Source of the DNA: a virus
Taxonomy: Duplodnaviria > Heunggongvirae > Uroviricota > Caudoviricetes
Reading direction: 5' to 3' (one strand)
DNA length: 64,000 nucleotides
Virus record (IMG/VR): IMGVR_UViG_2675903433_000022
A model generated the notes under the pieces. It was not told the origin of the DNA, searched no databases, and saw only the letters and a list, made by a program, of their open reading frames with translations. Below, one piece after another: positions 1,013-44,119 of the stretch; the first letter of the stretch is position 1, and each line of letters opens with the position of its first letter. The position numbers and the translations under genes are program-made.

Positions 1013-1014
1013 TC

Positions 1015-2088: not shown

Positions 2089-2095
2089 ACACAAG

Positions 2096-2119
2096 GCGTC
2101 CACAGGACGCCTTTTTTAT
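2096..2119 (+). terminator. rho-independent terminator (GGCGTCC-aca-GGACGCC + T run)
   Basis: GC stem-loop immediately after the recombinase stop followed by TTTTTTA. Confidence 0.6.
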
Positions 2120-2180
2120 CTCTTGAAAATATATAAGTACTTACTTATTATTTTCGCATAACAACCACATAGGAAAACAC

Positions 2181-2381
2181 ATGATCAAAATCTATCTATT
2201 GGCAGTAGCCACAGGCGTTTCAGTGGCTCTCATCTACGGTTTACTGGTTCCGTCGCTGATTTCTACCAAGAGTGATTTAGCCGTCATGTTTGGAGTTATC
2301 GTTGGTTTTGGTGCTCCTGTAATCGGTCTTATTGCTGGTCGTAAGTTTATCAACTCATTAATCAAAGCAAAGGGGAAATAA
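2181..2381 (+). CDS. small membrane protein (two predicted TM helices)
   Basis: 66 aa, two hydrophobic stretches; conserved GGAAAACACATG initiation context; 3 bp before the next gene. Confidence 0.55.
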   Translation: MIKIYLLAVATGVSVALIYGLLVPSLISTKSDLAVMFGVIVGFGAPVIGLIAGRKFINSLIKAKGK

Positions 2382-2384
2382 GTA

Positions 2385-3215
2385 ATGAAGAAAGGTTTAC
2401 TTGCAGTTGCTCTGGCGGCTATTTGCACAATGGGTCTTACTGGCTGTGATCGCGTGGAGCCTGGATACGTTGGCATCAAAGTAAACAAATTAGGTGAAGA
2501 CAAAGGGATCGGTGAAGTGGTTGGCGTTGGTCGCCAATGGACAGGTCTTAACACCGAACTTTACGTATTCCCGACCTTCAAACAAATGAAGACCTACGAC
2601 GAGCCGTTCACATTCCAGATGAGTGACGGTACTGCTATTGGTCACAAAATTGGCGTTGCGTATCTGGTTAATCGTGACAAGGTAACGACGGTGTTCCAGA
2701 CCTATCGCAAAGGCGTAGACGATATCACCGAATCAGATCTGCGTCAGAAAATTGCCGACTCTCTAAACCGTTTGGCCAGCCGTATGACCACTGACTCATT
2801 TATCGACGGTGGTAAGGCACAATTGCTGGACAACGCACTGAAAGATATTCAGAAAGAGATGTCTCCGGTTGGTATTGAGGTACTGAGCCTGTCATGGGTT
2901 GGAAAGCCTGATTACCCAAAAACCGTCATTGAATCTATCAACGCCAAAGTAACGGCTAACCAGCGTACTCTGCAACGTCAGCAGGAAGTTGAACAACGTA
3001 AAGCTGAGGCGAATATGCTACGTGAACAGGCTAATGGTGAAGCTGATGCTATCCGTGCTCGTGCGCAAGCAGAAGCAGACGCCATTCGTCTGCGCGGTGA
3101 AGCTCTGCGTCAAAACCCGAACGTTATGGAGCTGGAAGCCATCAATAAATGGAATGGCCAGTTACCGCAGTACATGACTCAAGGGGCTAACACTCCTTTC
3201 ATTACAGTGAAATAA
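2385..3215 (+). CDS. SPFH/band-7 (stomatin/prohibitin-like) domain lipoprotein
   Basis: Signal peptide with lipobox LTGC; central region and Ala/Glu/Arg-rich coiled coil consistent with SPFH domain proteins. Confidence 0.7.
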   Translation: MKKGLLAVALAAICTMGLTGCDRVEPGYVGIKVNKLGEDKGIGEVVGVGRQWTGLNTELYVFPTFKQMKTYDEPFTFQMSDGTAIGHKIGVAYLVNRDKVTTVFQTYRKGVDDITESDLRQKIADSLNRLASRMTTDSFIDGGKAQLLDNALKDIQKEMSPVGIEVLSLSWVGKPDYPKTVIESINAKVTANQRTLQRQQEVEQRKAEANMLREQANGEADAIRARAQAEADAIRLRGEALRQNPNVMELEAINKWNGQLPQYMTQGANTPFITVK

Positions 3216-3233
3216 CTCTCTTTAAGAAGATCA

Positions 3234-3259
3234 GGCGTCCAGTTGGACGCCGTTTTATT
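3234..3259 (+). terminator. rho-independent terminator (GGCGTCC-agtt-GGACGCC + T run)
   Basis: Same stem sequence as the terminator at 2096; follows the SPFH gene stop. Confidence 0.6.
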
Positions 3260-3310
3260 CTCGTTATTAACACATACAAGAAAACAATTTGTTAAAAGGT
3301 AAAGTTAATT

Positions 3311-4135
3311 ATGCCCAACCACATTACAAACGAAATCCGAGTCATAGGTGGTACAAATAAACAACGCTTAGATTTCATACGTGCCATAACTAACAAAAAA
3401 GGTCTAATTGACTTTAATACCATTTGCAGACGTCCGAAAAGTATAGAAATGGAAGAAAACAATCATATCAGGCGCATGGCCTCTGCAATGGCGGGCGAAA
3501 CAGTTTACGACTACATGTTCGGTGAATTAAAGACTCCAGAACAGGTCGAATTAGCTATGCGTGAATCAGGAATGACACGCAAGGAAATTCGCAAAATCAA
3601 AGAGCAGGCTCTTATGCGGCTTGAGAATTATCGTCGCTATGGCTATTACTCATGGTTTGACTGGTCGCGAGCTAATTGGGGAACAAAATGGAATGCCTAC
3701 AACATCGAAATGCCCGTAAAACGTATCCCTACACGTATTAAGTACGGCCATAATTTCCGCCATACACACGTTCGAGCATATGCAAAACGAATCTATAAAA
3801 AACGTCTTGCAAGACATGCCGCAACTGGTGGTGAGTTGGTGATTCGCTTTGAAACAGCCTGGTCTATGCCAAAACCAATTTATCAAGCGATGGCTAGAAA
3901 GTTCCCGCACCTTGAGTTTGTAATACGTTATGCAGACGAAGACTTCGGCAATAACTGCGGACTCGTTTTACTTCGCAACGGCAAATGGGAATATGACTAC
4001 ATTGCACCGGCGAATAACGAACAATCGTCAGAAGAAAAAATCAAATGGCGCAAGTTCGCCTTTGAGTTATGTTGTCCTGGTATCACTCCACAAGAATACG
4101 GTCTAAATGAAGAATACGAATACGCCGGATATTAA
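3311..4135 (+). CDS. hypothetical protein
   Basis: Track ORF 274 aa; preceded by an AAACAAtTTGTT palindrome; Trp-rich segment YSWFDWSRANWGTKW; no assignable function. Confidence 0.6.
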   Translation: MPNHITNEIRVIGGTNKQRLDFIRAITNKKGLIDFNTICRRPKSIEMEENNHIRRMASAMAGETVYDYMFGELKTPEQVELAMRESGMTRKEIRKIKEQALMRLENYRRYGYYSWFDWSRANWGTKWNAYNIEMPVKRIPTRIKYGHNFRHTHVRAYAKRIYKKRLARHAATGGELVIRFETAWSMPKPIYQAMARKFPHLEFVIRYADEDFGNNCGLVLLRNGKWEYDYIAPANNEQSSEEKIKWRKFAFELCCPGITPQEYGLNEEYEYAGY

Positions 4136-4168
4136 AGAATTGTCATTTGGCTTTACGCTCGAAGCATA

Positions 4169-4921
4169 GTGGTTAAGAAGATGAAAAGAAAAATTGAAGA
4201 ACCAAAAACGACACTTAATAAACATGGGGAAAAAATTCAAACACACCCAGCGTTCGGTCTTGTGAAAACAAGCCGTGTTAGCACGACTGGCATTCGTCTA
4301 TTTGATTCAGAACTGGAACATAGAGACTATATTGAAATAGGCGTTTACGAGGCTGAACTATCCTTGGATAATGAACGAACCCGGCCACAAAGGAGTAGCA
4401 ATAGACGGCCTTTAGTTGAAATTAGACTTAGCCAGGCACAATGGGCTGCTATGGTTAGCAGTTTTGGTGTGGGCGAAGGTGTGCCATGCACTATTTCATA
4501 TAAAACCATTGGCGACTCAATTAGAGTTCATGATATTGCCGAGCAAAAAAGTATTCGACAAAAATTCAACGATCAAATAAAGGCAGCTACGAATAGTGAG
4601 ATTGATCGACTTAATCAGCAAGTATCAGAGCTAGGTGAGCTTGTGAAAAAAGGAAGAGCTGGAAAACGTGACCTTGAAGAACTATATAGAAAACTTGCAT
4701 CTGCTGTAGCTAACCTTCCTGAAAATCTGTGCTTTGCTACCGAATTAATGCAGGAGCAAATGGATGAAATTGTCTCATCTGGAAAGGCGGAGATTGAGGC
4801 GTATGTTGCAGGCACTGTTATGCGTAAAGGGTTAGCAGCATTAGGCACAGAATCATGCATTAACGATGCTCCTACTGTCTCTATCACCAAAATGGAAAGC
4901 GGTAAAGAATTACTACCATAA
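4169..4921 (+). CDS. hypothetical protein (alternative ATG start at 4181)
   Basis: Track ORF 250 aa with coiled-coil-like C-terminal half. Confidence 0.55.
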   Translation: MVKKMKRKIEEPKTTLNKHGEKIQTHPAFGLVKTSRVSTTGIRLFDSELEHRDYIEIGVYEAELSLDNERTRPQRSSNRRPLVEIRLSQAQWAAMVSSFGVGEGVPCTISYKTIGDSIRVHDIAEQKSIRQKFNDQIKAATNSEIDRLNQQVSELGELVKKGRAGKRDLEELYRKLASAVANLPENLCFATELMQEQMDEIVSSGKAEIEAYVAGTVMRKGLAALGTESCINDAPTVSITKMESGKELLP

Positions 4922-4941
4922 ATGTATCTGAGGTACTGACA

Positions 4942-5331
4942 ATGCTTTTAATTCAACCTGGGTTCGGTTTAAAGATAAAAAAAGGACATATGTTCGGTTT
5001 CAAAGAATCGAAACGAAAAATTCTGTCCATTAGATTGCCATTTATCACCATTCATTGGTTAAACAGAGAGTCAACCGATTATTGGTATAAATGTGCTCTG
5101 GCCGCATTTAACGACCCTGACTGGTTTATAGAAAACCACCATGCTGTTCGTCAGGCAAAGAGAAAAGCTAATACGACATACATGAAGGCGTATCGGAAGG
5201 CATGGAAAGAACACCGCGATCGATACCAAAAAGACATGGAGAAACTTGAATTGGAAAATATGGATCTAAGAAGGAAGCTCGGTGAAGCACGGCGAGATAT
5301 TGAAGCATATAAACGTCTTGTATCGGAGTGA
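4942..5331 (+). CDS. hypothetical protein
   Basis: Track ORF 129 aa, basic, coiled-coil C-terminus. Confidence 0.5.
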   Translation: MLLIQPGFGLKIKKGHMFGFKESKRKILSIRLPFITIHWLNRESTDYWYKCALAAFNDPDWFIENHHAVRQAKRKANTTYMKAYRKAWKEHRDRYQKDMEKLELENMDLRRKLGEARRDIEAYKRLVSE

Positions 5332-5333
5332 AT

Positions 5334-5468
5334 ATGACTTTACATTGTTTTTTCAAAGGGCATTGCTTTTCACTATACAGAAACAGAAATAATAATGGGG
5401 CATTCTACATATGTAGTAAATGTGGGAGGACAAAATATCTTCCAGATGTCAAATTTGAAGGTCCTTGA
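5334..5468 (+). CDS. possible small Cys-rich (zinc-ribbon-like) peptide, 44 aa
   Basis: ATG 3 bp after the upstream stop; CxxxxxC...CxxC spacing; below the 60-aa track cutoff, read by eye. Confidence 0.3.
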   Translation: MTLHCFFKGHCFSLYRNRNNNGAFYICSKCGRTKYLPDVKFEGP

Positions 5469-5911
5469 ATGTTTGCATTAAATGGGCAATACAGATGATC
5501 ACAACAGACTTTTCTAAATTAAGTGATTTTGAAATTAACAGACGAGTATGTGAGGCTTTAGATATGGAGGAGTATTTCTTCATACCTGATGACGAAGCAG
5601 ATTTCGATTCGGAGATCCCCACTGACGAAAGAGGTCCTGTTTGGCAGACGTCAAAAAGGGATATTAATGGCTTCCGTGCTTCAAACGGAAATTGCTTCAA
5701 TCCTTGCAACAACCCGGCGGACGCAAAGCCCATTATCGTAGAGAACAGAATTGGCATTATTCCTGCGCCAGAAAATGGATTATGGAAGGCAGCGCATAGA
5801 AAGATTGGTAACGATAATACTCCATACCATATGACTCAAAATGTAAATCCACTCCGCGCCGCCATGATTGTCTTTCTGATGATGAAAGAAAGTGAGAGTT
5901 GTACCGATTAA
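5465..5911 (+). CDS. hypothetical protein (start uncertain; alternative ATG at 5495)
   Basis: Track ORF 148 aa, same strand as neighbours. Confidence 0.45.
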   Translation: MNVCIKWAIQMITTDFSKLSDFEINRRVCEALDMEEYFFIPDDEADFDSEIPTDERGPVWQTSKRDINGFRASNGNCFNPCNNPADAKPIIVENRIGIIPAPENGLWKAAHRKIGNDNTPYHMTQNVNPLRAAMIVFLMMKESESCTD

Positions 5912-6210
5912 TGAATATATACGATTTTTTTAAAAAACCTAACACATGTGTCAGAAAAGGGTATAAACCGTCAGTCATCGATTGCTGGTCGCTATCAGCA
6001 AATAATCTCAACAATGTATTCAAAATGCATTGGGAGTTTCTTTGTGAAGCGCGCGGCGTTCTCGACATGACAGTCAGAGAAGCAATTATCTGGATTCTTT
6101 GGTTTCCGGTAAGAACATTTATGACTCTGACGTACCCATTTACCTTCTGGATTTGGGGAACCGTCCTTTATTTCATATTAAAAGGAGAAGTAAAACATGG
6201 CAGCAATTAA
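5899..6210 (+). CDS. hypothetical protein with C-terminal hydrophobic segment
   Basis: Track ORF 103 aa; Trp/Phe-rich hydrophobic stretch IIWILWFPV..FWIWGTVLYFIL. Confidence 0.4.
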   Translation: MYRLMNIYDFFKKPNTCVRKGYKPSVIDCWSLSANNLNNVFKMHWEFLCEARGVLDMTVREAIIWILWFPVRTFMTLTYPFTFWIWGTVLYFILKGEVKHGSN

Positions 6211-6622
6211 GAAACTCTACGATGCCGCAAACGCGGCTCTGGATGTTATTGATGATGAAGTATCAAAAGGCTTTCCTGAACCTGATTGGGCGCATCAGCT
6301 ACGAAACGCTATCGCCGAAATGAATCCACCAGATCCGACCACCGACGAGACAGACTGGCAGCGATTTATCCGTATGTACGCTCAGGAAATAGGTCCAACG
6401 CCAACGGCAGAGCAAGCAATGCTGCTGAAATACTTCAAAGAGGCGGGAGAGGATTTACCAATTGATGACTCAGCATATTGGTTCCACTGCGCATGGCGTA
6501 AGTATGACGTGATATTCACACAAGGCATGGGGAGCAAAGATATGGTTGTGTGGCATCTACTCCATATAGACACAGCCGTTGACAGAGTTATTGAACAGTT
6601 TTTCCCTAACCAAGAAGATTGA
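6197..6622 (+). CDS. hypothetical protein
   Basis: Track ORF 141 aa; AAGGAG RBS upstream. Confidence 0.55.
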   Translation: MAAIKKLYDAANAALDVIDDEVSKGFPEPDWAHQLRNAIAEMNPPDPTTDETDWQRFIRMYAQEIGPTPTAEQAMLLKYFKEAGEDLPIDDSAYWFHCAWRKYDVIFTQGMGSKDMVVWHLLHIDTAVDRVIEQFFPNQED

Positions 6623-6677
6623 TCGCCTATTCATAACTAACAAAATAAGTAAACACTAACCACAAAAGGAAAAACAC

Positions 6678-6953
6678 ATGAGAGTTTTAGTTCGAATCGT
6701 TACCAGCACTGTCTATGACGTGTTTCCGCTTTTTATGGTCAAAGTCGATGGCCTTAACGACGAAGAAACTGACGCGCTGATCCAGCGTACTCTTGTTGAA
6801 TATACAGGTCATGACGCTGATTCAGTGATGGTTGATGATGATGGTGTTTGTTGGCATAACGGCAACTGTTGGTACGTAGAAGAGACTCAACAAATCAGTG
6901 ATGAAGATGCCGCACATCTTGAGCGTATTTTAAGCATTGGCACTTTTGAGTGA
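6678..6953 (+). CDS. hypothetical protein
   Basis: Track ORF 91 aa; conserved AAAAGGAAAAACACATG initiation context. Confidence 0.55.
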   Translation: MRVLVRIVTSTVYDVFPLFMVKVDGLNDEETDALIQRTLVEYTGHDADSVMVDDDGVCWHNGNCWYVEETQQISDEDAAHLERILSIGTFE

Positions 6954-6992
6954 GTTTACAGTAAAATTTATATAAGTTAGTATCTACCTATC

Positions 6993-7172
6993 ATGAAGAT
7001 TTTTATTGAATACTTGTTACTCATCGCTTCAATAGCTTTTGTCATCGACTGCATTTTCACTGGTGTCATTCGTAAAGTCTTTTCCCCGGTGAACGACGTA
7101 GTCATAAACGCTTTGGCTATCGTGCTCGTATTTAATTCAGCATTTGATGTAATCAAAGAGGTGGCAGCATGA
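6993..7172 (+). CDS. possible small hydrophobic membrane peptide, 59 aa
   Basis: Below track cutoff; stop overlaps the next start (ATGA); two hydrophobic segments. Confidence 0.3.
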   Translation: MKIFIEYLLLIASIAFVIDCIFTGVIRKVFSPVNDVVINALAIVLVFNSAFDVIKEVAA

Positions 7173-7504
7173 AGGCCATCCCATTTGCGCTGTTGTTCCT
7201 TTCTTCGATCGTTGTGGCCGACACCACTGTTTATCAGTGTGAAATGTCTGTAGCCGACGTTAAGAATGGCGCTCTTACCGACGTCATAAAAGCACCATAT
7301 GGAGCGATGGTCGTAGACAGCGGCGACCAGTTCTATGTTGTGCGTGACGATCGAGTGTTGTCATCCCCATATCTCACAAACCGTAATGGCAAATTAACCG
7401 GCGTCGGAGAAGACCACTTCGTATACAACAAATACAAGGGCTTCTATGGCGTTCACGCTTCTCAGCAAAGCTACCTTTTCGATGACTGCAAGGAGGTTGG
7501 ATAA
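7169..7504 (+). CDS. hypothetical secreted protein (N-terminal signal peptide)
   Basis: Track ORF 111 aa; hydrophobic N-terminus MKAIPFALLFLSSIVVA. Confidence 0.55.
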   Translation: MKAIPFALLFLSSIVVADTTVYQCEMSVADVKNGALTDVIKAPYGAMVVDSGDQFYVVRDDRVLSSPYLTNRNGKLTGVGEDHFVYNKYKGFYGVHASQQSYLFDDCKEVG

Positions 7505-7716
7505 TGGCATTAACACTGGCAGGTCTGGAAATCGAGAAAACAAGCGGCTACTGGCGTGCTAAGGGTTTCAAGCAGCCTGGCATTCTTGAGCGTCTGGAAC
7601 GTGAAGATGGGTATATCGTCCACCAGCGGCGTGAATGGCGTATGTACGATCCAGAAACAGGAAAACTGACTACAAAAGCCGGAACACTTTGGGGTCTGTT
7701 AAAGAAAATACACTAA
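7504..7716 (+). CDS. hypothetical protein
   Basis: Track ORF 70 aa; start overlaps the upstream stop. Confidence 0.45.
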   Translation: MALTLAGLEIEKTSGYWRAKGFKQPGILERLEREDGYIVHQRREWRMYDPETGKLTTKAGTLWGLLKKIH

Positions 7717-7763
7717 ATGCAAACTGACTGCGGCACGTTCCGCAGTCATATTTCATAGTCGTC

Positions 7764-8296
7764 ACCGCTGACAGCATACACAATCAACTACCGCTGATAG
7801 CATATCGAGAGTCTATCTCACCGCTCACAGCATACTTTACTCGATTTTTTACCGCTGACAGCATACTTAAGACATTGCATGAATAATGTGTACCGGTATG
7901 GGTATAACCAGAACAAAATTACCGCTGGCAGCATACGAATGTCTGACATATGCCATTAATTACCGCTGATAGCATATCCAAACAAAAATTCCTCAATAAC
8001 ACACCGCTGACAGCATACGTTATATCAGGGAACAGCAGGCAATAAATGCCTTTCACTACAAGCAATCAGCGCAATAGCAATAGAATGTTAGTGAGCGCAA
8101 ACCTATATGGAATGCACTCTTCGAGGTTAGTAACCACTGGGGAGGTATGACAGAGCATTGAGTGGTGATAGATGATTTACCGCTCACAGCATACGTTCAT
8201 CTCACTATACCGCTGGTAGCATATCTTTAACCGTTCACAGCATACTTTTCAGAAAAATAGCCGCTGATAGCATACATTTCACCGCTGACAGCATAT
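7764..8296. repeat. iteron array, 12 copies of ~16 bp ACCGCTGACAGCATAC-like repeat (incA-like)
   Basis: Copies near 7764, 7790, 7820, 7851, 7921, 7962, 8003, 8179, 8209, 8230, 8260, 8281 with minor variants; abuts the 3' end of the RepA-like gene. Confidence 0.85.
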
Positions 8297-9390
8297 CAAA
8301 GCAGTTTGAGACTATTGGAAAGGATCTCAATCATCTTGATATTTTCAGGCGTCAAATTCTGCGAAAGTTCGGTTATCTTATTGATAATGTTCTGTTTGGC
8401 ATCAATTTCCCCGGCTTTCTCATCTGGTTTTTTGGGTTCGATGTCTTCAGGTTTTGGCGGTGCGACTTTGAGTTTTGGATTGCGGCTGTGAATCTGGATA
8501 TAGATCGACCGCCCACGCTTAATCTCGCTGTATTCGAGATAGCCCAAATCTTGGAGAGCTTTTAAGCCGTTGCGTATAGTCTGATTCTGCGAGCTGACAT
8601 TCCTGCTACTCAAATTGAGTCGCGCACGCAATCGAGCAAGCGATACCGGCGCAGGCTTGGTTGGAAGACTTTCGATGAAGGTGTACAGAGCCTGTGCTGT
8701 TTCTTTGCGTGGTAGCTTATTGATAACCTTTAACTGCAAAAGAACCTTATGGTCAAAGCGATATAGTTCGGCCAGCTTCGGTTCTGCATAGAACACCACC
8801 GTATCTTTCTGCTCGTTGTAGTCCACGCTATTGATGAGGTGCACCATCAGAAGCGAGATCTTGTTAGAGCCGTCGACGTTCTTTTCTTCATACGTTCTCT
8901 GGAAAGACAGAGTTGTACGCATGATCTTCAAAAGACTGTTTGTAAGCCGGTCGCGGAGTGTTTTGCGGATCTGTGACGATGGATAGCCACAAAACTTCGC
9001 AAATTTCGTGATGCTTAACTCGACACGACCGTTAGGTTCGCCGTATTCTGCCAGCGAACGCACAACGCCCACCCACGTTTTGAAATCATGATCCATGTCG
9101 AGACGAGGACCGGTTATCTTGATATCGGAATAGCCTTCAGAACGGGCTACTTCGAGCTGAACAAGCTCCTTTGAAGCATCGATCTCATTTGGCTTGTTAC
9201 GCTTGCTGTATTTTGTCCCCTTGAGCGTGGGCACGAACAACCCCAGCCGCATCAACGCAATTGGTTGGACTGTATTGTTGCTATTAGGGACAAGTTCCCC
9301 TGTGTACAATTCAAGGGAACCTTCTTCAAAGTTGTCGAGATTATCTTCTACTTCTTTGTTATTTTTACCTTTTTTATTTTTTGTGGACAT
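8296..9390 (-). CDS. iteron-flanked replication initiator (RepA-like)
   Basis: Track ORF 8296..9510; likely true start is the ATG at 9390 (MSTKNKK...) because the longer ORF runs into the upstream iterons; call rests on context, not motifs. Confidence 0.7.
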   Translation of the reverse strand: MSTKNKKGKNNKEVEDNLDNFEEGSLELYTGELVPNSNNTVQPIALMRLGLFVPTLKGTKYSKRNKPNEIDASKELVQLEVARSEGYSDIKITGPRLDMDHDFKTWVGVVRSLAEYGEPNGRVELSITKFAKFCGYPSSQIRKTLRDRLTNSLLKIMRTTLSFQRTYEEKNVDGSNKISLLMVHLINSVDYNEQKDTVVFYAEPKLAELYRFDHKVLLQLKVINKLPRKETAQALYTFIESLPTKPAPVSLARLRARLNLSSRNVSSQNQTIRNGLKALQDLGYLEYSEIKRGRSIYIQIHSRNPKLKVAPPKPEDIEPKKPDEKAGEIDAKQNIINKITELSQNLTPENIKMIEILSNSLKLL

Positions 9391-9410
9391 GTGGACACCT
9401 TTGTCATTCA

Positions 9411-9512
9411 ACCGCTGACAGCATACTTGATTTGCCGCTGGCAGCATACCAAAAACAGTTGGTAGCATACGGCGAACCGTTGACAGACTATCAATTACCG
9501 CTGGCAGCATAC
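9411..9512. repeat. iteron array, 5 copies (incC/origin-proximal set)
   Basis: Same ACCGCTGACAGCATAC family (two degenerate) immediately upstream of the RepA start. Confidence 0.8.
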
Positions 9513-9552
9513 ATGAACATGGCTTCAGGCCAGTCGTGGCGCGGCTTACAGC

Positions 9553-9625
9553 GATCGGGGATCTTATTTGATCTATACAAGGATCTATCTATGGATCTCT
9601 TTATTAGGATCTATCCTGTGGATAT
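9553..9625. other. candidate plasmid replication origin core: six GATC sites in heptamer-like repeats plus DnaA-box-like TGTGGATAT
   Basis: GATC at ~9553, 9560, 9570, 9582, 9594, 9608 followed by TGTGGATAT (8/9 match to TGTGGATAA) at ~9617; adjacent to the upstream iterons as in P1 oriR. Confidence 0.6.
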
Positions 9626-9711
9626 GTGAATAATTAAAACAGGCATTTACTACCTTCGGCGCACCTGGTGGGTTATCGTTGCCTCGGCTAACAATCACAG
9701 AAAAATGACAT

Positions 9712-10356
9712 ATGGATCTAAAACGCACGCGCTGGGTTCGTCGTCTTGAAGACGGCTCCTACACTATCGAATCAAATTCCAACCTGAATAAGCAGAAGTT
9801 GCTTTGTGACATCTGCGGTATAGCGGCGAAGTGCCCGATCTACGAAACCAGAATTAAACTTGATAAGGCTGGTGTGAATTTTCATTTAAACAGTTGCATC
9901 AGGTACGTTCCATTGCTCGCATTTCGTAAACCGATCATCGGATTAGATGCACCCTACTTCAACACACTCCGTTCAGGTGTGACGTGGCGAGATCGTTTAT
10001 CACCAGACAAGCTGATTTGCCTTGTATCCGCAGACACAGGGAAAATCATCCGTTTTGGGAAAGTAGACAAGGTTTACTCAGGTCCAGTAGACGAAATGTT
10101 GCGGAAACACAGCCGGTTTAATCATCTCTGTATGGGTGGTGAGAAAATCGAGAAGGTAGAAGAAGTGATCCGCAAATCCTACGGACACTTCCTGAACAAA
10201 GATAGCCTGCTCACCGCAATCTACATCAGACATGTAAAACGTGAGTTCGACCTCGAATACCACAGTGAAGAAGAACTTAACCTTGTTGACCCACGTCCAA
10301 AAGCTGGCGTCATAAGCATAAACGCAGCGCGTAAAAAGCCCACTGACGCGCTGTAA
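9712..10356 (+). CDS. hypothetical protein
   Basis: Track ORF 214 aa. Confidence 0.55.
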   Translation: MDLKRTRWVRRLEDGSYTIESNSNLNKQKLLCDICGIAAKCPIYETRIKLDKAGVNFHLNSCIRYVPLLAFRKPIIGLDAPYFNTLRSGVTWRDRLSPDKLICLVSADTGKIIRFGKVDKVYSGPVDEMLRKHSRFNHLCMGGEKIEKVEEVIRKSYGHFLNKDSLLTAIYIRHVKREFDLEYHSEEELNLVDPRPKAGVISINAARKKPTDAL

Positions 10357-10611
10357 CCCTCCAGATCGCATATTGGCGTAGATAGAATCTACGCCTCCTC
10401 AAAATAGCTCTCATAGCGTTTTACAGTGATCCTGTCTTATTTTTAGTCATACAGACAAGCAAAGTTGCGCCACAATAAATAGGTATATACTTACTTATAA
10501 ATTTTGTATATTAAGGCGCTCGTTTTCATTCCTAACATACCGTTATGCATAGTTGTTTACCTTCTCATTGCTCTTAGAATTTGTATCAAAATAACCACAA
10601 AGGAAAAACAC

Positions 10612-11697
10612 ATGACTTTGCCTTACGGCGTCATTTCTGACTGCCACTACCACAAATGGGATGCGTTCTCCACGACGAACGCTGAGGGGCTTAACTCCAG
10701 ACTTGAAATACAGTTGGAGGCAACGAAAGAAGCAGCCATCGCCATGAAGAAGGCCGGTTGTAAGTACATGTTGGTTGCCGGTGATACATTTCACGTCCGA
10801 GGAACTGTGTCCCCTTCTGTTTTGCATTACGTAACTGAAACGTACAAGTGGATTATCAACGAGCTTGATCTGACAGTAGTAATGCTGGCCGGTAATCACG
10901 ATCTTGAAACCAACGATTCAGTATATAGCGCCAACGCAGCAGCATCGCTGAGTTCTATCGGCGTGGTAATCGTATGTGGCAAGCGCCCACACTCAATAAA
11001 AATTGGTGATGTGACTGTCCACCTGATTAGCTGGCGTAACAATCATGCGGAGCTTATCAGCGATCTGAAAGCATTACGTAAGAGCGTAGAAGGTGATAAT
11101 CATGACGTTGTTATCCATACATCCATTAACAAAGCCATTCCAACAATGCCTGACGTCGGTATCGATGCGCAGGAGTTAAAGGATATCGGCTTTCGTCTCG
11201 TGCTTAGTGGGCATTACCACAACCACAAAGAGGTCATTCCTGGAGTTATCAGTGTCGGTGCGCTGACCCATCAAAATTGGGGAGATGTTGGATCTCTGGC
11301 TGGTTACATGATCGTAAACCCGGACGGCAGTTTCAGTCACTACGAAACCAGTGCGCCTAAATTCATTAACCTGGAAGATGATGTTGCTGATGACCAAATT
11401 CGCGGCAACTACGTGCGTTTCCGTGCCGTAATTGAGAACGATGAAGAAGGCATTAAGTACCAGAACATCCTCAAAACAATGGGTGCAAAAGGTGTCGTGT
11501 GCAACTTCATCCGTAAGTCATCAATGATGGAAGGGACAGCCAGCACAACTGAAACCAGCAAAATCGATAGCCTGGGAGAGTCGGTATCTGCTTATTGCAA
11601 GATTGTCCACGATACTGACGGCGGATTTGATCTGAGCAAGTTGGATATTTTGTGTCAGGAAATCCTCACCGAAGCGGAGAGTTCGGAGGCTGTGTGA
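10612..11697 (+). CDS. SbcD/Mre11-like metallophosphoesterase nuclease
   Basis: Track ORF 10504..11697, start moved to ATG 10612 after AAAGGAAAAACACATG; calcineurin-like motifs DCHYH, GDTFH, GNHD, GHYHNH. Confidence 0.8.
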   Translation: MTLPYGVISDCHYHKWDAFSTTNAEGLNSRLEIQLEATKEAAIAMKKAGCKYMLVAGDTFHVRGTVSPSVLHYVTETYKWIINELDLTVVMLAGNHDLETNDSVYSANAAASLSSIGVVIVCGKRPHSIKIGDVTVHLISWRNNHAELISDLKALRKSVEGDNHDVVIHTSINKAIPTMPDVGIDAQELKDIGFRLVLSGHYHNHKEVIPGVISVGALTHQNWGDVGSLAGYMIVNPDGSFSHYETSAPKFINLEDDVADDQIRGNYVRFRAVIENDEEGIKYQNILKTMGAKGVVCNFIRKSSMMEGTASTTETSKIDSLGESVSAYCKIVHDTDGGFDLSKLDILCQEILTEAESSEAV

Positions 11698-27031: not shown

Positions 27032-27077
27032 NNNNNNNNNNNNNNNNNNNNNNNNNNNNNNNNNNNNNNNNNNNNNN
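27032..27077. other. assembly gap (run of 46 N)
   Basis: Literal N run in the sequence. Confidence 0.99.
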
Positions 27078-27803: not shown

Positions 27804-27896
27804 CGGCTGTTAGTGCATATGCATTGACCATCTTTGCGTAAGCAATTTATGTAATTAGAAAACAACTTGTTTTGACAAATAATAAAAGGAAAACAC

Positions 27897-37452: not shown

Positions 37453-37538
37453 AAACAATTTGTTTTCTACGTTTTCTTATTTGAGAAAATCACGTTGTTG
37501 GCAGCTCATAGGCTTGTTGTTATACATAGCTGTATAGA

Positions 37539-37895
37539 TTATGAGCGTAAATTATTAGCGGATTTTAAGCCATATTCACCGTTATAGTAATTACTCGCGT
37601 TCCATTCATTGGGAAGCTCTTGTCTGTCCAATGTATAGTGGCGCACGATGTAACGACCTGCATCTTCTTCGAGGTACAGGCGGACATAGCCAATGTGAAT
37701 TACCGGTATGGGCGGCGTTCGTATTGCATAGATGTCGCGGAGATATACCGGTAGCTCGACAAATGCATCAGGTGCATCTGTGATGCTCGTTTTTTCACAG
37801 TATTCATATAACGCATCGTTGATATCGTTAAGGGATTCATGATCGTATATTTCCAGGTAATTACCCCGATCGCGATGGTACTCGATTTTAGCCAT
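37539..37895 (-). CDS. hypothetical protein
   Basis: Track ORF 118 aa, minus strand, directly downstream of 37896..38480. Confidence 0.5.
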   Translation of the reverse strand: MAKIEYHRDRGNYLEIYDHESLNDINDALYEYCEKTSITDAPDAFVELPVYLRDIYAIRTPPIPVIHIGYVRLYLEEDAGRYIVRHYTLDRQELPNEWNASNYYNGEYGLKSANNLRS

Positions 37896-38480
37896 TCAAA
37901 ATCCCCTATTATCGTTTTGCATTTCTCTAATCCGGTCCAGAACAACTTCATGTTGGGCTTGGATAGCGGCTTTTTCGTTTTCAAGCCGGGCAATAGACTT
38001 CTCTAATTCTTTGCTGTACCAGGCAAGTTGGGTAAGGTTCATCCGGTTGTGATCGAGAGTTGGCGACACCTCGACGTGATCCCCTTCTTCCTGCCTTAAT
38101 GAGAAGAGATTCATCTCATCCCTTGAGGAAAATTCAGCAACAATTTCTTGTTGATGATCCGGTCGCTGCGGCATCCTTGCCAGTATAAATGGCGGTTCTA
38201 TTGAAAACATGAATGACGGTTTAGACCGTGTTTTGACCCATCTAGCTTGCTGTCTTTCGGCAAGTTCACAGGCTTCATCATAGTTATCTACAAAACCAAG
38301 CACGGATGGACGGTCCCACGCGCCACCATTCAGACAATAAACAACAATTTTCCCGTCAGGTTCTGTAACTCCATAGGGATGGTCCCACCAGGCGTCCAGC
38401 TGGGCTTTGGAGCGTTTCTCGTTAGGAGTGCAGTCAAAATTTTTGGGCAATGCAGGATCGAGAGGAATGCGGGCAGGCAT
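37896..38480 (-). CDS. hypothetical protein
   Basis: Track ORF 194 aa; divergent from the UmuD-like gene across the LexA-box region. Confidence 0.5.
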   Translation of the reverse strand: MPARIPLDPALPKNFDCTPNEKRSKAQLDAWWDHPYGVTEPDGKIVVYCLNGGAWDRPSVLGFVDNYDEACELAERQQARWVKTRSKPSFMFSIEPPFILARMPQRPDHQQEIVAEFSSRDEMNLFSLRQEEGDHVEVSPTLDHNRMNLTQLAWYSKELEKSIARLENEKAAIQAQHEVVLDRIREMQNDNRGF

Positions 38481-38614
38481 GGCTAATTCCTTATTAATTG
38501 ATTAGTAACGAGGTTACGCTGATCCAGCGGTGATGAATAGTAGCAAAGCGCACAAAGTCATCAGAGGGGTTAAGACCCATAACGCGTTTGCACCAAAGGT
38601 GCATCTTTAATGTA

Positions 38615-38634
38615 TACTGTATGGATAAACAGTA
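38615..38634. promoter_or_regulatory. LexA (SOS) box
   Basis: TACTGTATGGATAAACAGTA fits CTGT-N8-ACAG; about 20 bp upstream of the UmuD-like start in a divergent promoter region. Confidence 0.7.
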
Positions 38635-38652
38635 TTTTGAGGTGAAAACGCT

Positions 38653-39042
38653 ATGGGCTTCCCTTCTCCTGCGGCGGATTATGCTGAGAGCCGTATTTCT
38701 CTTGATCAGCAGATAATTAGACATCCTTCAGCGACCTACTTCATGAGGGCAGCTGATAGCCATCATCGTGAGGGAATATTACAGGGTGCATTGCTGGTGG
38801 TCGATTCCTCACTTACCCCGGTTGATGGTTCTCTGCTTGTATGCGCTCTGGATGGGGAATATCGCGTAAAAAGATACCGGAAGTATCCACGTCAGCATCT
38901 GGAGGATTTAAGAACCGGTAAGAAGGAAGCATTGCCAAAGGATGACGATGGATGCACGGGCAGCAATGCCGTGTTTGGTGTGATCACTCACATTATCAAC
39001 GACGCAAGAAGTGGCGAGTTTGATGATTGTCCCGTGATGTAG
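38653..39042 (+). CDS. UmuD'-like (HumD-like) S24 peptidase-family protein
   Basis: Starts MGFPSPAADY, i.e. at the position equivalent to the post-cleavage N-terminus of UmuD (C|GFPSPAADY); HPSATYF and Ser/Lys dyad region conserved. Confidence 0.8.
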   Translation: MGFPSPAADYAESRISLDQQIIRHPSATYFMRAADSHHREGILQGALLVVDSSLTPVDGSLLVCALDGEYRVKRYRKYPRQHLEDLRTGKKEALPKDDDGCTGSNAVFGVITHIINDARSGEFDDCPVM

Positions 39043-39053
39043 GAGAACTGATT

Positions 39054-39078
39054 AGGCGGTGCAATGCACCGCCTTTTT
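39054..39078. terminator. bidirectional terminator hairpin between convergent genes
   Basis: Palindrome AGGCGGTGCAATGCACCGCCT followed by a T run. Confidence 0.55.
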
Positions 39079-39079
39079 A

Positions 39080-40180
39080 TCACACTGCGCGGAATGCGAT
39101 TTCGCCAGGTATTACTTCACCTTGCCAATACATTTGGGCAGCAACGCGATCTGCGAGGTCACGATAAATAGCCGTAAATTCGCTATCTGGACGACTAATA
39201 ACGGTTGGTGTTCCGTTATCCAGATCTTCACGAAGAGAGATATGAAGTGGCATTTGGCCTAACAACTGCGTGTTGTATTTCTCGGCCAGTTTCTGTGCGC
39301 CACCGGTGCCAAAAATTGGCTCGTGATGACCGCAGTTACTGCAAATATGCATACTCATGTTCTCGACAATACCGAGCACCGGAACCTCGACTTTCTCGAA
39401 CATCACAATGCCTTTTTTCGCATCGATCAACGCGATGTCCTGCGGCGTAGTTACCACAACCGCACCAGTTACAGGAATGTTCTGCGCCAGCGTCAATTGA
39501 ATATCACCAGTGCCCGGCGGCATATCGAGAACGAGATAGTCCAGATCAGGCCATAGAGTTTCCTGCAACATCTGCATTAACGCCTTGCTCGCCATCGGAC
39601 CACGCCACACCATCGCATTGTCGTCAGTTACCAGATAACCAATTGAATTGGTTGCCAGTCCATGAGACATAATCGGTGCCATGTGAGTACCGTCCGGTGA
39701 GGTTGGACGTTGGTTTTCCGCGCCAAGCATGGTTGGAATTGATGGCCCGTAGATATCGGCATCCAAAATACCAACTTTCGCACCTTCAGCAGCCAACGCC
39801 AGTGCCAGGTTTACCGCCGTGGAGGATTTACCAACGCCGCCCTTGCCTGAGCTGACGGCGATAATGTTCTTAACGCCATTAATGCCTGGTTGGTTTTTGA
39901 CGCGCTTAAGCGTGGCAATGTTGTACGACAGCTTCCAGTCGATAGCCTTTGCGCCAGTGATACGGAGCAGATCACCACTACATTGCTCTTTCAGGTCTTC
40001 AAAAGGCTTATTCCACACGAAAGGCATGATTAGTTCGACATGCAGTGTGTCATCCATCAACGCAACATGGTGTAACGCTTTAAGCGTAGTCAGGTTGTGT
40101 TTCAGGGTTGGGTGCTGAAAATTAGCCAGCGTACCGGCTACCATTGCTCTCAGGGCATCCGGCGATTTGGACTCGCTCAT
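39080..40180 (-). CDS. apbC: Fe-S cluster carrier ATPase Mrp/ApbC
   Basis: 366 aa; deviant Walker A SGKGGVGKS; reads as near full-length enterobacterial Mrp by recall. Confidence 0.9.
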   Translation of the reverse strand: MSESKSPDALRAMVAGTLANFQHPTLKHNLTTLKALHHVALMDDTLHVELIMPFVWNKPFEDLKEQCSGDLLRITGAKAIDWKLSYNIATLKRVKNQPGINGVKNIIAVSSGKGGVGKSSTAVNLALALAAEGAKVGILDADIYGPSIPTMLGAENQRPTSPDGTHMAPIMSHGLATNSIGYLVTDDNAMVWRGPMASKALMQMLQETLWPDLDYLVLDMPPGTGDIQLTLAQNIPVTGAVVVTTPQDIALIDAKKGIVMFEKVEVPVLGIVENMSMHICSNCGHHEPIFGTGGAQKLAEKYNTQLLGQMPLHISLREDLDNGTPTVISRPDSEFTAIYRDLADRVAAQMYWQGEVIPGEIAFRAV

Positions 40181-40337
40181 CCCGTCTCCTTTATTTTAAT
40201 TTGCGCAATTGTCGCCTTGTAGTGTACTCCAGCTACGGCATTTAATCATTTATGAGAAATGCTGTTATCACATGGCAGACATAAGGCCATTTTGTTACTA
40301 TCAAGCCCCTTTTCACTACAAAGAAGTAATGCCTACT

Positions 40338-42371
40338 ATGACCCAAGTCGCGAAGAAAATTCTGGTGACGTGCGCGCTGCCGTACGCTAACGGCTCAATC
40401 CACCTCGGCCATATGCTGGAGCACATCCAGGCTGATGTCTGGGTTCGTTACCAGCGAATGCGCGGCCACGAGGTTAATTTCATCTGTGCCGACGATGCCC
40501 ACGGTACGCCGATCATGCTGAAAGCACAGCAGCTTGGTATCACACCGGAGCAGATGATTGGCGAAATGAGTCAGGAACACCAGACTGATTTCGCAGGCTT
40601 TAACATCAGCTATGACAACTATCACTCGACGCACAGCGAAGAGAACCGTCAGTTGTCTGAGCTTATCTATACTCGCCTGAAAGAGAACGGTTTTATTAAA
40701 AATCGTACCATCTCTCAGCTGTACGACCCGGAAAAAGGCATGTTCCTGCCGGACCGTTTTGTAAAAGGCACCTGCCCTAAATGTAAAGCGCCAGATCAAT
40801 ACGGCGATAACTGTGAAGTCTGCGGCGCGACTTACAGCCCGACTGAACTGATCGAGCCGAAATCGGTAGTTTCTGGTGCTACGCCGGTAATGCGTGATTC
40901 CGAACACTTCTTCTTTGATCTGCCTTCTTTCAGCGAAATGTTGCAGGCATGGACCCGCAGCGGTGCGTTGCAGGAGCAGGTGGCAAACAAAATGCAGGAG
41001 TGGTTTGAATCTGGCCTGCAACAGTGGGATATCTCCCGTGACGCACCTTACTTCGGTTTTGAAATTCCGAACGCGCCGGGCAAATATTTCTACGTCTGGC
41101 TGGACGCGCCGATTGGCTACATGGGTTCCTTCAAGAATCTGTGCGACAAGCGCGGTGATACCACCAGCTTCGATGAATACTGGAAGAAAGACTCCACCGC
41201 CGAGCTGTACCACTTCATCGGTAAAGATATTGTTTACTTCCACAGCCTGTTCTGGCCTGCCATGCTGGAAGGCAGCAACTTCCGCAAGCCGACCAACCTG
41301 TTTGTTCATGGCTATGTGACGGTGAACGGCGCAAAGATGTCCAAGTCTCGCGGCACCTTTATTAAAGCCAGCACCTGGCTGAATCATTTTGACGCTGACA
41401 GCCTGCGTTACTACTACACTGCGAAACTCTCTTCGCGCATTGATGATATCGATCTCAACCTGGAGGATTTCGTTCAGCGCGTGAATGCCGATATCGTGAA
41501 CAAAGTGGTTAACCTGGCCTCCCGTAATGCAGGCTTTATCAACAAGCGTTTTGACGGCGTGCTGGCAAGCGAACTGGCTGACCCGCAACTGTACAAAACC
41601 TTTACTGATGCCGCTGAAGTGATTGGTGAAGCATGGGAAAGCCGCGAATTTGGTAAAGCGATTCGTGAAATCATGGCGCTGGCTGATCTGGCTAACCGCT
41701 ATGTCGATGAACAGGCTCCGTGGGTGGTGGCGAAGCAGGAAGGACGCGATGCCGATCTGCAGGCGATTTGCTCTATGGGCATTAACCTGTTCCGCGTGCT
41801 GATGACGTACCTGAAACCGGTACTGCCGAAACTGACTGAACGTGCAGAAGCATTCCTGAATACAGAACTGACCTGGGATGGTATCCAGCAACCGCTGCTG
41901 GGCCATAAAGTGAATCCGTTCAAGGCACTGTATAACCGTATCGATATGAAACAGGTGGAAGCACTGGTGGAAGCATCCAAAGAAGAAGTGAAAGCCACAG
42001 CTGCACCGGTAACTGGCCCACTGGCTGACGACCCGATTCAGGAAACCATCACCTTTGACGACTTCGCCAAAGTTGACCTGCGTGTGGCGCTGATTGAAAA
42101 CGCGGAGTTTGTCGAAGGTTCTGACAAACTGCTTCGCCTGACGCTGGATCTCGGTGGTGAAAAGCGTAATGTCTTCTCAGGCATCCGTTCCGCTTATCCA
42201 GATCCACAGGCACTGATTGGTCGTCACACCATTATGGTGGCTAACCTGGCTCCGCGTAAAATGCGCTTCGGTATCTCTGAAGGCATGGTGATGGCTGCTG
42301 GCCCCGGCGGGAAAGATATCTTCCTGTTAAGCCCGGATGCTGGTGCTAAACCTGGCCACCAGGTTAAGTAA
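40338..42371 (+). CDS. metG: methionyl-tRNA synthetase
   Basis: Track ORF 40209..42371, true start ATG 40338 (MTQVAKKIL); HIGH-type motif [14 protein letters not shown], zinc knuckles CPKC/CEVC and C-terminal tRNA-binding domain. Confidence 0.95.
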
Positions 42372-42393
42372 TTAAACAACCTCTCTTCGCAAT

Positions 42394-42418
42394 GCCCGGC
42401 AACACGCCGGGCATTTTT
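42394..42418 (+). terminator. rho-independent terminator after metG
   Basis: GCCCGGC-aacac-GCCGGGC then ATTTTT. Confidence 0.6.
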
Positions 42419-42533
42419 CATATAGACACAATCCCTTCTGATTTACACAGTACCTAAAACAATTTGTTTTCTGCCTTTTGTTGATGGAGATAATAAACCA
42501 CATAAGAAAACAACTTGTTTTGGAGTGGTTGAA

Positions 42534-42833
42534 ATGTTGAACATTACCCAAGCCTACCAGGTGGCATTGATCAGCTCATCTCATACATCAGAGGAAGATG
42601 CTCGCCGATTCATGATCGCAAGCAATGAGCTGGATTGGGTTTCACAAATTGAGTACGGTTGCATTGTCCACGCCGGGTTACAGGACGATGACTGGAAAGA
42701 TGAGTTGCGTCGATATGGTATATCCGAGGGCGCGATTGCGAACATTCAGAAAGTACTTGATGTAGGCTTTGACTCTGTACATTTTGATTGTGGCGCACCG
42801 GTCGTTGAAGGGCTTGAGTGCTGGCAATGGTAA
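42534..42833 (+). CDS. hypothetical protein
   Basis: Track ORF 42525..42833, ATG 42534 after an AAACAAcTTGTTT palindrome. Confidence 0.45.
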   Translation: MLNITQAYQVALISSSHTSEEDARRFMIASNELDWVSQIEYGCIVHAGLQDDDWKDELRRYGISEGAIANIQKVLDVGFDSVHFDCGAPVVEGLECWQW

Positions 42834-42869
42834 TCCGGCAATCGCTTCATACTAGATAACGGAGAATTT

Positions 42870-43055
42870 ATGCTTAAAGAAGACTCATATCTACTAAAGG
42901 CGCTTGAAATGCGTGGCGTTGAACCTACAGTGAAAAACGCTCACGATATCTACCTTCAGTTTTCGCCAGAGCTGAAACAGCTCATAAATAAATATGGAGT
43001 GAATGACTCCAGCGTCAAAGCCATGATAGATGATGAATTAGACCATCTCATCTAA
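42870..43055 (+). CDS. hypothetical protein
   Basis: Track ORF 61 aa. Confidence 0.35.
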   Translation: MLKEDSYLLKALEMRGVEPTVKNAHDIYLQFSPELKQLINKYGVNDSSVKAMIDDELDHLI

Positions 43056-43189
43056 CCAAACCGTTGATAATGGCGGTCACAATTTGATTCTTTTCTATAA
43101 GAATCCGTTGATCGCCACTACTCCCCTTCCATACCTGCAATCATATCCTTAAATATCAATAGGTTATAGTTGTTTGCACAAACAAGAAA

Positions 43190-43930
43190 ACAACTGAATA
43201 ACAGATCAACGAAACGTCAACGCTTTCTCCCGATTTGGTCTAAAAAATTGACGTTTTCACACATCACTTCTTATACCCGTAATTCTACGCAGCAGATAGC
43301 GCCACAGCGTTCAATTTTCACCACAGACGACTCAACACACTACCAACAAAAACACACGCTCAAAATCGCTCCCGTTGCGTTACACAACCATATAAACAAC
43401 TTATTTTCAGGTATAACAAAACAACTAAATAACACATACGCCATTACCAAAAACAACCAACCTCTTTATGGCAGGCTACCGAAAAGACCCACCTCTTCTT
43501 CCCAGGCTACCGGACAGCCAACCTAACTTTCACAGGCAATCCGAAAACATTCATACGCGCGATACCCACGACACGCCATTACCCAAACATCGAAGAAACA
43601 CCAGAATCACTGAAACCCCAACGAAGTCTGTAACCGCAAGGCTTCTCTCAATCCCAAAAGACACGAAACATAACAATCACGGGAAACGCCATTACCCAAT
43701 ACACGAATAACTACAAAAGCCCTTCACACACTCCAGACAAACAACTCAAACACAATAACGAAAGGAATAGCCCACCTGCCATTACTCCATATACGGAGAA
43801 GAACAATAACCATAACGACGAGAACACCCCATAGAAGAACCACCGCAAAACGAACGAAACCACATACACCGACAGAGAAAACAACACACCCAATCCACCA
43901 ACAGAAATAGTCGCCCTATAGAACGTTCTG
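43190..43930. repeat. strand-asymmetric A/C-rich, G-poor noncoding tract with internal repeated modules
   Basis: About 740 bp with almost no G runs on the plus strand; recurring ACGCCATTACC(C)AA and CAGGCTACCG..CCACCT units; track ORFs here are low-complexity artefacts. Confidence 0.5.
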
Positions 43931-44119
43931 GTAGGAGTGAGCATTAACGCCTATAGAGAGGTTGAGACAGATAAAACACGAAGAAAACACAACATGTATA
44001 GCGAAGAAGCCAGGTATGTATAAGTGGGGAGGGAAGGAGGGGTGTCGCCTCCTTTTTCGTATTTATTCAACTCCTGATTTTATCCCCCGTAACACCCCTA
44101 CGGTCAGCCTTCGGTCCAT

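Follow-up and report, generated by a model that had tools for sequence, protein, structure and literature searches.

The window analysed here, a 64,000-nucleotide (nt) stretch of the IMG/VR virus record IMGVR_UViG_2675903433_000022, carries two host-type genes, apbC (mrp) and metG, within an element that its sequence places among the phage-plasmids of the SSU5 supergroup. The first gene, for an iron-sulfur (Fe-S) cluster carrier of the P-loop NTPase type, occupies 39080-40180 on the minus strand and is intact (366 amino acids, aa). The second, for a dimeric-type methionyl-tRNA synthetase (MetRS), is full-length (677 aa) and occupies 40338-42371 on the plus strand; the list of open reading frames (ORFs) had entered it as 40209-42371, from an upstream TTG, and we assigned its start to 40338. 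An intergenic region of 157 nt (40181-40337) separates the two genes, and their divergent order is that of mrp-metG in Escherichia coli K-12. An earlier note on this DNA had described a full-length metG and a divergent apbC in the enterobacterial arrangement, and both the coordinates and the profile scores given below bear this out.

The deduced MetG product scored 1019.8 bits against the NCBIfam equivalog NF001100 (cut-off 587), with residues 4-677 aligning to positions 3-676 of the 676 in the profile, and it contains the signatures HLGH (residue 22) and KMSKS (residue 333) as well as the zinc-knuckle motifs CPKC (residue 146) and CEVC (residue 159). Pfam comparisons recovered the class I (M) catalytic core, the anticodon-binding domain PF19303 (residues 416-540) and the C-terminal tRNA-binding/dimerisation domain PF01588 (residues 581-674); the NCBIfam model TIGR00399 also matched the C-terminal part (residues 543-677). 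The top PDB matches were MetRS chains (1F4L, 1QQT and 1P7P), covering residues 1-552. By profile and motifs, MetG is a class Ia dimeric bacterial methionine--tRNA ligase, with predicted methionylation activity on tRNA-Met and tRNA-fMet.

ApbC scored 759.8 bits against NF008669 (cut-off 348; residues 2-366 against positions 5-369 of 369), contains a NUBPL-type P-loop NTPase domain in Pfam, and shows the deviant Walker A motif GKGGVGKS at residue 112 and the cluster-ligand CxxC motif, as CSNC, at residue 280. Its homologue in phage Cyrano (OV696614.1, 6466-7566) is annotated as 'Septum site-determining protein MinD'; given the score to ApbC and values far below the NCBIfam cut-offs for MinD, this label is a misannotation.

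Two terminator-like hairpins followed by T-runs, both on the plus strand, border the gene pair, one between the convergent humD and apbC genes (39054-39074) and the other 3' of metG (42391-42415). Neither appears to be derived from a chromosome: the first lacks a chromosomal homologue, the second is specific to the phage-plasmids, and a chromosomal origin of these flanking terminators was rejected after no homology was found. The suggestion that both genes kept their own terminators thus held for metG, but not for apbC, because the plus-strand T-run of the hairpin at 39054-39074 serves the upstream humD gene. Within the intergenic region, the 47 nt adjoining metG were conserved in all the intergenic regions that we aligned, including an extended -10-like TGnTACTAT; in the window, this candidate element reads TGTTACTAT (40293-40301) and lies 36 nt 5' of the metG ATG, its conservation suggesting a role as a promoter. 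Searches for tRNA genes and Rfam families in the window returned none, so the synthetase has no phage tRNA-Met partner there.

A cassette shared by a clade of SSU5-supergroup phage-plasmids

Comparisons with PHROGs identified in the window a UvsX-like recombinase, a replicative helicase, SbcCD, NrdAB, a second helicase, a large terminase, a portal protein and an Ig-domain structural protein. The portal protein showed 99.8% aa identity with that of phage Cyrano, 96.6% with that of PhiR41_1 (96.6-99.8% across Cyrano, PhiR41_1 and CMS-2020a), 93.3% with that of SSU5 and around 89% with those of Klebsiella SSU5-like phages. The gene pair itself is bordered by an lxr-humD module (left) and a DUF5983 gene (right). 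As the earlier note had proposed, the two genes therefore sit between phage-type genes, and the flanking phage and phage-plasmid genes put the island inside the element and not at its edge, making this a phage-borne tRNA synthetase.

To define the distribution of the gene pair, hereafter the cassette, we used positions 38500-43000 as a megablast query. Full-length matches at 97-98% identity were obtained in 180 PLSDB plasmids and 209 complete E. coli genomes, and the cassette was also present in four phage records (Cyrano OV696614, PhiR41_1 PV340561 and two CMS-2020a). The plasmids carrying it are circular, non-mobilizable molecules of approximately 110 kb, from E. coli, Shigella sonnei and E. 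albertii. The best database match to the region reached 98.2%, with no identical record, and plasmid p38 from S. sonnei (NZ_CP099775) was 97.9% identical across it. The order humD-apbC-metG-DUF5983 and the junctions were common to the relatives, at 96-98% nt identity; in particular, at the junctions of the window (39040-39083 and 42372-42456), circular plasmids finished independently showed 98.8-100% identity to it, and two phage genomes 91-99%. A scan of IMG/VR with ApbC added 33 further contigs with the cassette arrangement.

Since backbone, arrangement and junctions agree, we assign the element, on sequence, to the metG-bearing Escherichia/Shigella clade of SSU5-supergroup phage-plasmids (pWPMR2 / pSLy3-like), which includes Cyrano and PhiR41_1. 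The plasmid pWPMR2 has been placed in clade K of the SSU5 supergroup, and in the same study 18% of the S. sonnei genomes scanned contained the element, which was also reported from E. coli CC131, CC23 and CC73 (bioRxiv 10.1101/2025.09.12.675607). At a threshold of at least 95% identity, the cassette region matched 191 PLSDB plasmids (in 180 cases with a query coverage of 80% or more) and the portal gene matched 186, so the cassette appears to be fixed in the clade.

Outside this clade, SSU5 and Klebsiella phage pJN2-26 had other small genes at the syntenic position and no humD, apbC or metG, within a flanking synteny that is preserved in both (DUF4942 gene, variable region, A+C-rich non-coding stretch and helicase). 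Likewise, no MetRS match was found in SSU5-group phage records outside the Escherichia clade. Across phage records, 28 of 50,697 gave a MetRS match, many of them short, unannotated and of uncertain origin; MetRS genes occur in a few other large phages, such as Pseudomonas phage Y5, Acinetobacter phage MD-2021a and Microcystis phage MaAM05. A PLSDB search with a 720-nt query joining both flanks found no record with humD directly beside the DUF5983 gene, that is, no example of the state preceding insertion.

From these results and those presented below, we consider it highly probable that apbC and metG form a genuine, clade-defining accessory ('moron') cassette of an Escherichia/Shigella SSU5-supergroup phage-plasmid, acquired through a single old capture, provided with its own housekeeping-type promoter and later modified by conversion of metG by the host.

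Origin of the cassette and probable exchange with chromosomal metG

We compared the cassette with 80 enterobacterial chromosomal loci; the loci listed were without E. albertii or E. fergusonii chromosomes. Homology to the chromosomes started at 39079-39084 and ended at 42371-42379, encompassing the two coding sequences and their spacer only, with the block trimmed within about 8 nt of both stop codons. Identity to K-12 over the whole cassette was 89.05% nt and, among the matches listed, the closest chromosomal match overall was Escherichia. The two genes differed in their relatedness to K-12. The metG gene was 94.4% identical (nt), with only 8 differences in 677 residues of its product (around 99% aa identity). 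The apbC gene showed 83.8% nt identity with K-12, 82.5% with both Escherichia sp. E1V33 and Citrobacter werkmanii, and 80.6% with Salmonella arizonae, its product being 95% identical to K-12 Mrp. Synonymous divergence (dS; Nei-Gojobori) from K-12 was 0.27 for metG and 1.18 for apbC, as compared with 0.74 and 1.18, respectively, between K-12 and Citrobacter.

Divergence was also uneven within the cassette. The first 340 nt and the last 230 nt of apbC showed 76-81% identity to every genus sampled, with C. werkmanii as the best match, whereas the central 530 nt were 90.4% identical to K-12. The distal two-thirds of the intergenic region aligned with Citrobacter (77%) and not with E. coli. Additionally, residues T112, T275, T276 and I442 of MetG, all differing from K-12, are the residues present in Citrobacter and Salmonella; Kluyvera has three of them as well, and T275 is also present in Escherichia sp. 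E1V33. This sequence pattern points to an acquisition that was either old or from a non-Escherichia donor, in a single event at the base of the clade, which would have preceded its diversification because the same junctions are found in all its members. The block would thus have been captured once, from a non-Escherichia or long-diverged enterobacterium.

During these comparisons we observed that accession CP170191.1, labelled as the chromosome of Enterobacter hormaechei B56, shows exactly the same identities to the window as K-12 for metG (94.395%) and mrp (83.761%), and it looks like E. coli-type sequence deposited under an Enterobacter label.

The metG gene was highly polymorphic among phage-plasmids. 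An alignment of 27 copies contained 26 distinct sequences and 279 polymorphic sites (13.7%), with a Hudson-Kaplan minimum of 64 recombination events, and 158 of the 310 minor alleles matched one of four Escherichia chromosomal references. In plasmid pEC881_2, metG had no mismatches to K-12 over nt 241-480 and 721-840, and only one in nt 481-600, where the other phage-plasmid copies had 5-10 mismatches per 120 nt; K-12 alleles accounted for 42 of its 54 minority alleles. Polymorphism in apbC was concentrated in the core of the gene (nt 300-900), with nearly invariant ends, and the window contains its own mosaic variants of both genes. These patterns point to gene conversion with the chromosomal metG of the host. 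We propose that homologous recombination with the chromosomal metG of the hosts has replaced sequence in this gene repeatedly, and such conversion of metG and of the apbC core would explain why metG looks E. coli-like and apbC does not.

We also entertain, more tentatively, a broader reading in which this process gives the element a role in allele traffic. Following an old, non-Escherichia capture, metG and the apbC core would be continually converted by the host, and the element would in turn shuttle metG alleles between Escherichia and Shigella lineages, with ApbC as co-selected cargo; the 2 kb of homology could also allow chromosomal integration or hybrids at metG. This reading may in part be contained already in Tam et al. 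(see below), whose work is summarised in PMC12452169 with the words 'highly variable copies of metG', a wording that fits the mosaic gene described here. A hint of hybrids comes from three IMG/VR loci, L101 (IMGVR_UViG_2671181056_000013, 1-11098) and L116 and L120 (IMGVR_UViG_2740892421_000017), in which a phage-plasmid apbC-metG pair lies beside a chromosomal-type mrp, a truncated metG or the chromosomal downstream flank of metG. These could be misassemblies across the two-copy metG repeat or real recombinants between phage-plasmid and chromosome, or integrations, at metG.

All of the 5,426 E. coli genomes searched matched the cassette, at 5,538 chromosomal places. An essential-gene addiction of the host through loss of the chromosomal copy was rejected, as these figures are consistent with that copy being kept, a consistency that falls short of proof genome by genome.

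Selection, possible role and alternative explanations

The coding capacity of the cassette is well preserved. In full-length IMG/VR copies, apbC was intact in 32 of 32 and metG in 23 of 23, two of these metG being of chromosomal type. An exception was found in the E. albertii plasmid NZ_CP099888.1, where a single-C insertion in a CC run at nt 1176 shifts the reading frame of metG, leaving apbC intact; the gene may truly be a pseudogene in this plasmid, or the insertion may be a sequencing error in a homopolymer. Pairwise ratios of nonsynonymous to synonymous substitution (dN/dS) among phage-plasmid copies were low (0.006-0.036), but we discounted them as evidence of selection on metG, where variation is largely imported. 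Selection was tested instead on the ends of apbC, at which 19 of the 22 variant alleles differ from K-12. These ends contained 19 synonymous and 3 nonsynonymous changes, against 22.7% synonymous changes expected by chance (P = 4e-10). ApbC is, therefore, under purifying selection on the element and not a mere hitch-hiker.

In the model that we favour, the cassette would be transcribed from its own conserved housekeeping promoter, with terminators on either side and independently of the phage programme, and its expression in the plasmid state would be constitutive. Such independence would provide the lysogen with extra doses of MetRS and ApbC; as judged from sequence, the lysogen would carry an additional, wild-type-like MetRS, together with ApbC, in amounts scaling with the copy number of the phage-plasmid. 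A published phenotype agrees with a role in the lysogen: in a passage citing Tam et al. 2024 (doi 10.1101/2024.10.27.24316207), PMC12452169 states that metG from pWPMR2 promotes antimicrobial survival in S. sonnei, and attributes to expression of the phage-plasmid metG an antimicrobial-surviving subpopulation in epidemic S. sonnei.

Several observations weigh against this model, or against parts of it. The survival phenotype comes from the second-hand summary of Tam et al. in PMC12452169, and the established route to persistence is a reduced function or expression of MetRS, not an extra MetRS (PMC11004401). A simple promoter scan of the apbC/metG intergenic region called no sigma-70 site. With respect to origin, no sampled genus exceeded approximately 81% identity to the ends of apbC among the matches listed, leaving the donor species without a close candidate. 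The low dN/dS of metG is uninformative, as much of its variation is imported from chromosomal alleles that had already been purified. Finally, the neighbouring accessory region is likewise variable and mosaic, so diversity is not unique to metG.

An alternative role would be in the lytic cycle, with extra MetRS, charging both initiator and elongator tRNA-Met, and an Fe-S carrier boosting the synthesis of phage proteins and the maturation of enzymes, which would fit the presence of NrdAB and of the recombination and replication genes. The element does carry many auxiliary metabolism genes, MetRS genes exist in a few other large phages (Y5, MD-2021a and MaAM05, as above), and a persistence model based on metG only would leave the purifying selection on ApbC unexplained. 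Nevertheless, the cassette is free of the palindromes of the backbone (see below) and keeps a putative housekeeping-type promoter, the window is devoid of tRNA genes, other SSU5-supergroup members manage without the cassette, and the phenotype summarised in PMC12452169 is one of lysogens. We thus regard a lytic role as unlikely.

The cassette might instead be a neutral passenger with no selected role, found intact because the clade is young and metG is repaired by conversion from the host. Compatible with this are the wide extent of conversion from chromosomal alleles, the frameshifted metG in one E. albertii plasmid, and a backbone in which genes such as that for the portal protein are at least 99% identical in most members, suggesting a young clade. 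However, synonymous changes predominate even where apbC is too divergent to undergo conversion, and both genes are intact in every full-length IMG/VR copy, as described above. Moreover, the cassette is about as frequent as the portal gene in PLSDB, although genes come and go freely elsewhere in this region, and the phenotype as summarised in PMC12452169 also argues against neutrality. We consider this explanation improbable.

Still less credible is a recent capture of the mrp-metG pair of the present E. coli host by the phage-plasmid, one of two explanations offered in the earlier note. Gene order and orientation equal to those of the chromosome, the very few residues separating MetG from its K-12 counterpart, and Escherichia being the closest overall match among those listed would all agree with it. 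The comparison with host chromosomes that the earlier note called for speaks against it: overall identity to K-12 is 89%, homology is confined to the limits of the two genes with no chromosomal flank brought along, apbC has a dS of 1.18 from K-12 with ends that are 76-81% identical to all genera, and the distal spacer is of Citrobacter type. Furthermore, the cassette appears fixed in a clade whose shared junctions imply one event prior to diversification, and recombination tracts of later date account for the likeness of metG to E. coli.

The other explanation, an assembly chimera in which chromosomal mrp-metG was misjoined into a phage-plasmid scaffold, can be excluded for this window on its sequence: although the scaffold contains an N gap, as had been pointed out, metG is a two-copy repeat in lysogens in which draft contigs often break, 10 of the 33 cassette-bearing IMG/VR loci end within or just before metG, and some contigs (L101, L116/L120) combine phage-plasmid and chromosomal parts, that sole gap (27032-27077, 46 N) is 12 kb upstream of the cassette, the same arrangement and junctions recur in some 180-209 circular plasmids finished by many laboratories, as well as in four phage genomes, and an identity of only 89% to E. 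coli chromosomes means that the cassette cannot be the chromosomal copy of this host.

The metG cargo and its phenotype are already published, and the cassette is annotated in public records; the present analysis may add three details, namely that apbC and the spacer bear a non-Escherichia signature, how far gene conversion has gone, and that apbC is under selection. An essential translation gene on an infectious, plasmid-like prophage is unusual, and this element is frequent among epidemic, drug-resistant S. sonnei as well as in lineages of E. coli such as CC131. In practical terms, a second copy of metG confounds the calling of single-nucleotide polymorphisms, breaks short-read assemblies and recombines with the chromosomal gene.

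Flanking features and comparison with known systems

The backbone around the cassette is marked by a palindrome, AAACAAnTTGTTT, with eight exact copies in the window, at 27860, 28589, 29303, 37453, 42457, 42508, 45073 and 55878, as compared with 0.02 expected; there are additional copies with one mismatch. The exact copies are usually preceded by ATAAGA or ATTGAGA and located 12-25 nt 5' of start codons on the plus strand. As the earlier note had remarked, the motif occurs on both sides of the cassette: the copy at 37453-37465 (AAACAATTTGTTT) is the last before a motif-free block (37466-42456), in which we found no copy with up to one mismatch, and a pair of copies (42457-42469 and 42508-42520, spanning 42457-42520) lies just 5' of the next gene. 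With up to one mismatch allowed, there are 10 sites in the syntenic accessory region of SSU5 (0.10 expected) and 9 in that of Klebsiella phage pJN2-26 (0.07 expected), and none was found in 82 chromosomal and P1 loci. These data make the palindrome a candidate regulatory signal of the SSU5-supergroup backbone, possibly an operator or promoter element recognised by an SSU5-group regulator. Its identification as a late promoter dependent on Lpa of phage P1 was rejected, because the -22 boxes of P1 (AAGTTACTT and ATGTGACTT) are different.

To the left of the cassette, an Lxr-like ORF (37896-38480, minus strand), identified by blastn to P1, and humD (38653-39042, plus strand), encoding a UmuD'-like translesion subunit (NCBIfam NF051876, 219.8 bits), form a P1-type lxr-humD module. 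A consensus LexA (SOS) box, TACTGTATGGATAAACAGTA (38613-38632), stands 5' of humD at the position of the annotated LexA site of P1 and is putatively functional. Positions 38000-39041 were 89.8% identical to P1 over 1,044 nt, with the match stopping at the stop codon of humD, and identities to P1, P7 and D6 were in the range 86-90%. The lxr-humD module is a second horizontally shared block, adjoining the cassette on its left.

Both blocks lie in an accessory region that extends from the conserved DUF4942 gene to the conserved A+C-rich non-coding stretch and is variable in between. Left of humD, accessory blocks are gained and lost between otherwise near-identical phage-plasmids. Only pS2, out of six relatives, aligned over a substantial part of 37470-38600, and pS2 itself is without approximately 37470-37950. 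On the right, the first backbone gene is the DUF5983 gene (42534-42833, plus strand; Pfam PF19419), which is present in relatives. Further downstream, 43050-43950 comprises around 900 nt without ORFs, whose plus strand is strongly enriched in A and C and poor in G (GC skew -0.35, AT skew +0.33). This stretch is conserved in the SSU5 supergroup, with 69.6% identity over 96% of its length in SSU5 and approximately 70% in the Klebsiella relatives. It had no Rfam match, and a 301-nt piece gave an RNA fold z-score of -2.2; it may serve as an origin, encode a long untranslated RNA or take part in packaging.

The window resembles most closely the pWPMR2-type relatives (Cyrano, PhiR41_1 and CMS-2020a), with which it shares the backbone, the humD-apbC-metG-DUF5983 order and the junctions; the likeness to pWPMR2 itself was gauged through S. 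sonnei relatives such as NZ_CP099775 (97.9%). With the group of SSU5, pHCM2, pMT1 and the Klebsiella SSU5-like phage-plasmids, compared here through SSU5 and the Klebsiella phages, it has in common the structural genes, the synteny from DUF4942 to the helicase and the palindrome AAACAAnTTGTTT, whereas SSU5 and pJN2-26 are without its humD, apbC and metG at the syntenic position. Phage P1 has a similar lxr-humD module, and in both elements foreign cargo starts right after the humD stop codon, this cargo being the phd-doc addiction module in P1 and apbC-metG in the window. Outside lxr-humD there is no relation to P1 at the DNA level, which sets the element apart from the P1-like phages (Punavirus).

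Regarding its cargo, the MetRS of the window recalls the isoleucyl-tRNA synthetases MupA and MupB, in that each is a mobile second synthetase for an amino acid that the host already charges. MupA and MupB, however, are divergent, drug-insensitive enzymes, whereas MetG of the window has wild-type catalytic motifs and differs so little from the K-12 enzyme. An inhibitor-resistant paralogue of the MupA type was accordingly rejected, the window MetG reaching 33 bits against the MupA/MupB models (cut-off 1900) and departing from K-12 MetRS at those 8 residues. Being nearly identical to the host enzyme, it would exert any effect through dose or regulation and not through an altered target. The same gene has been tied to antibiotic survival in the chromosome, by metG alleles conferring persistence or tolerance (PMC11004401). 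Those alleles reduce the function or expression of a single copy, whereas the phage-plasmid contributes an added, intact copy that is wild type at the sites of the persistence mutations (G263, S264 and ETIT569-572).

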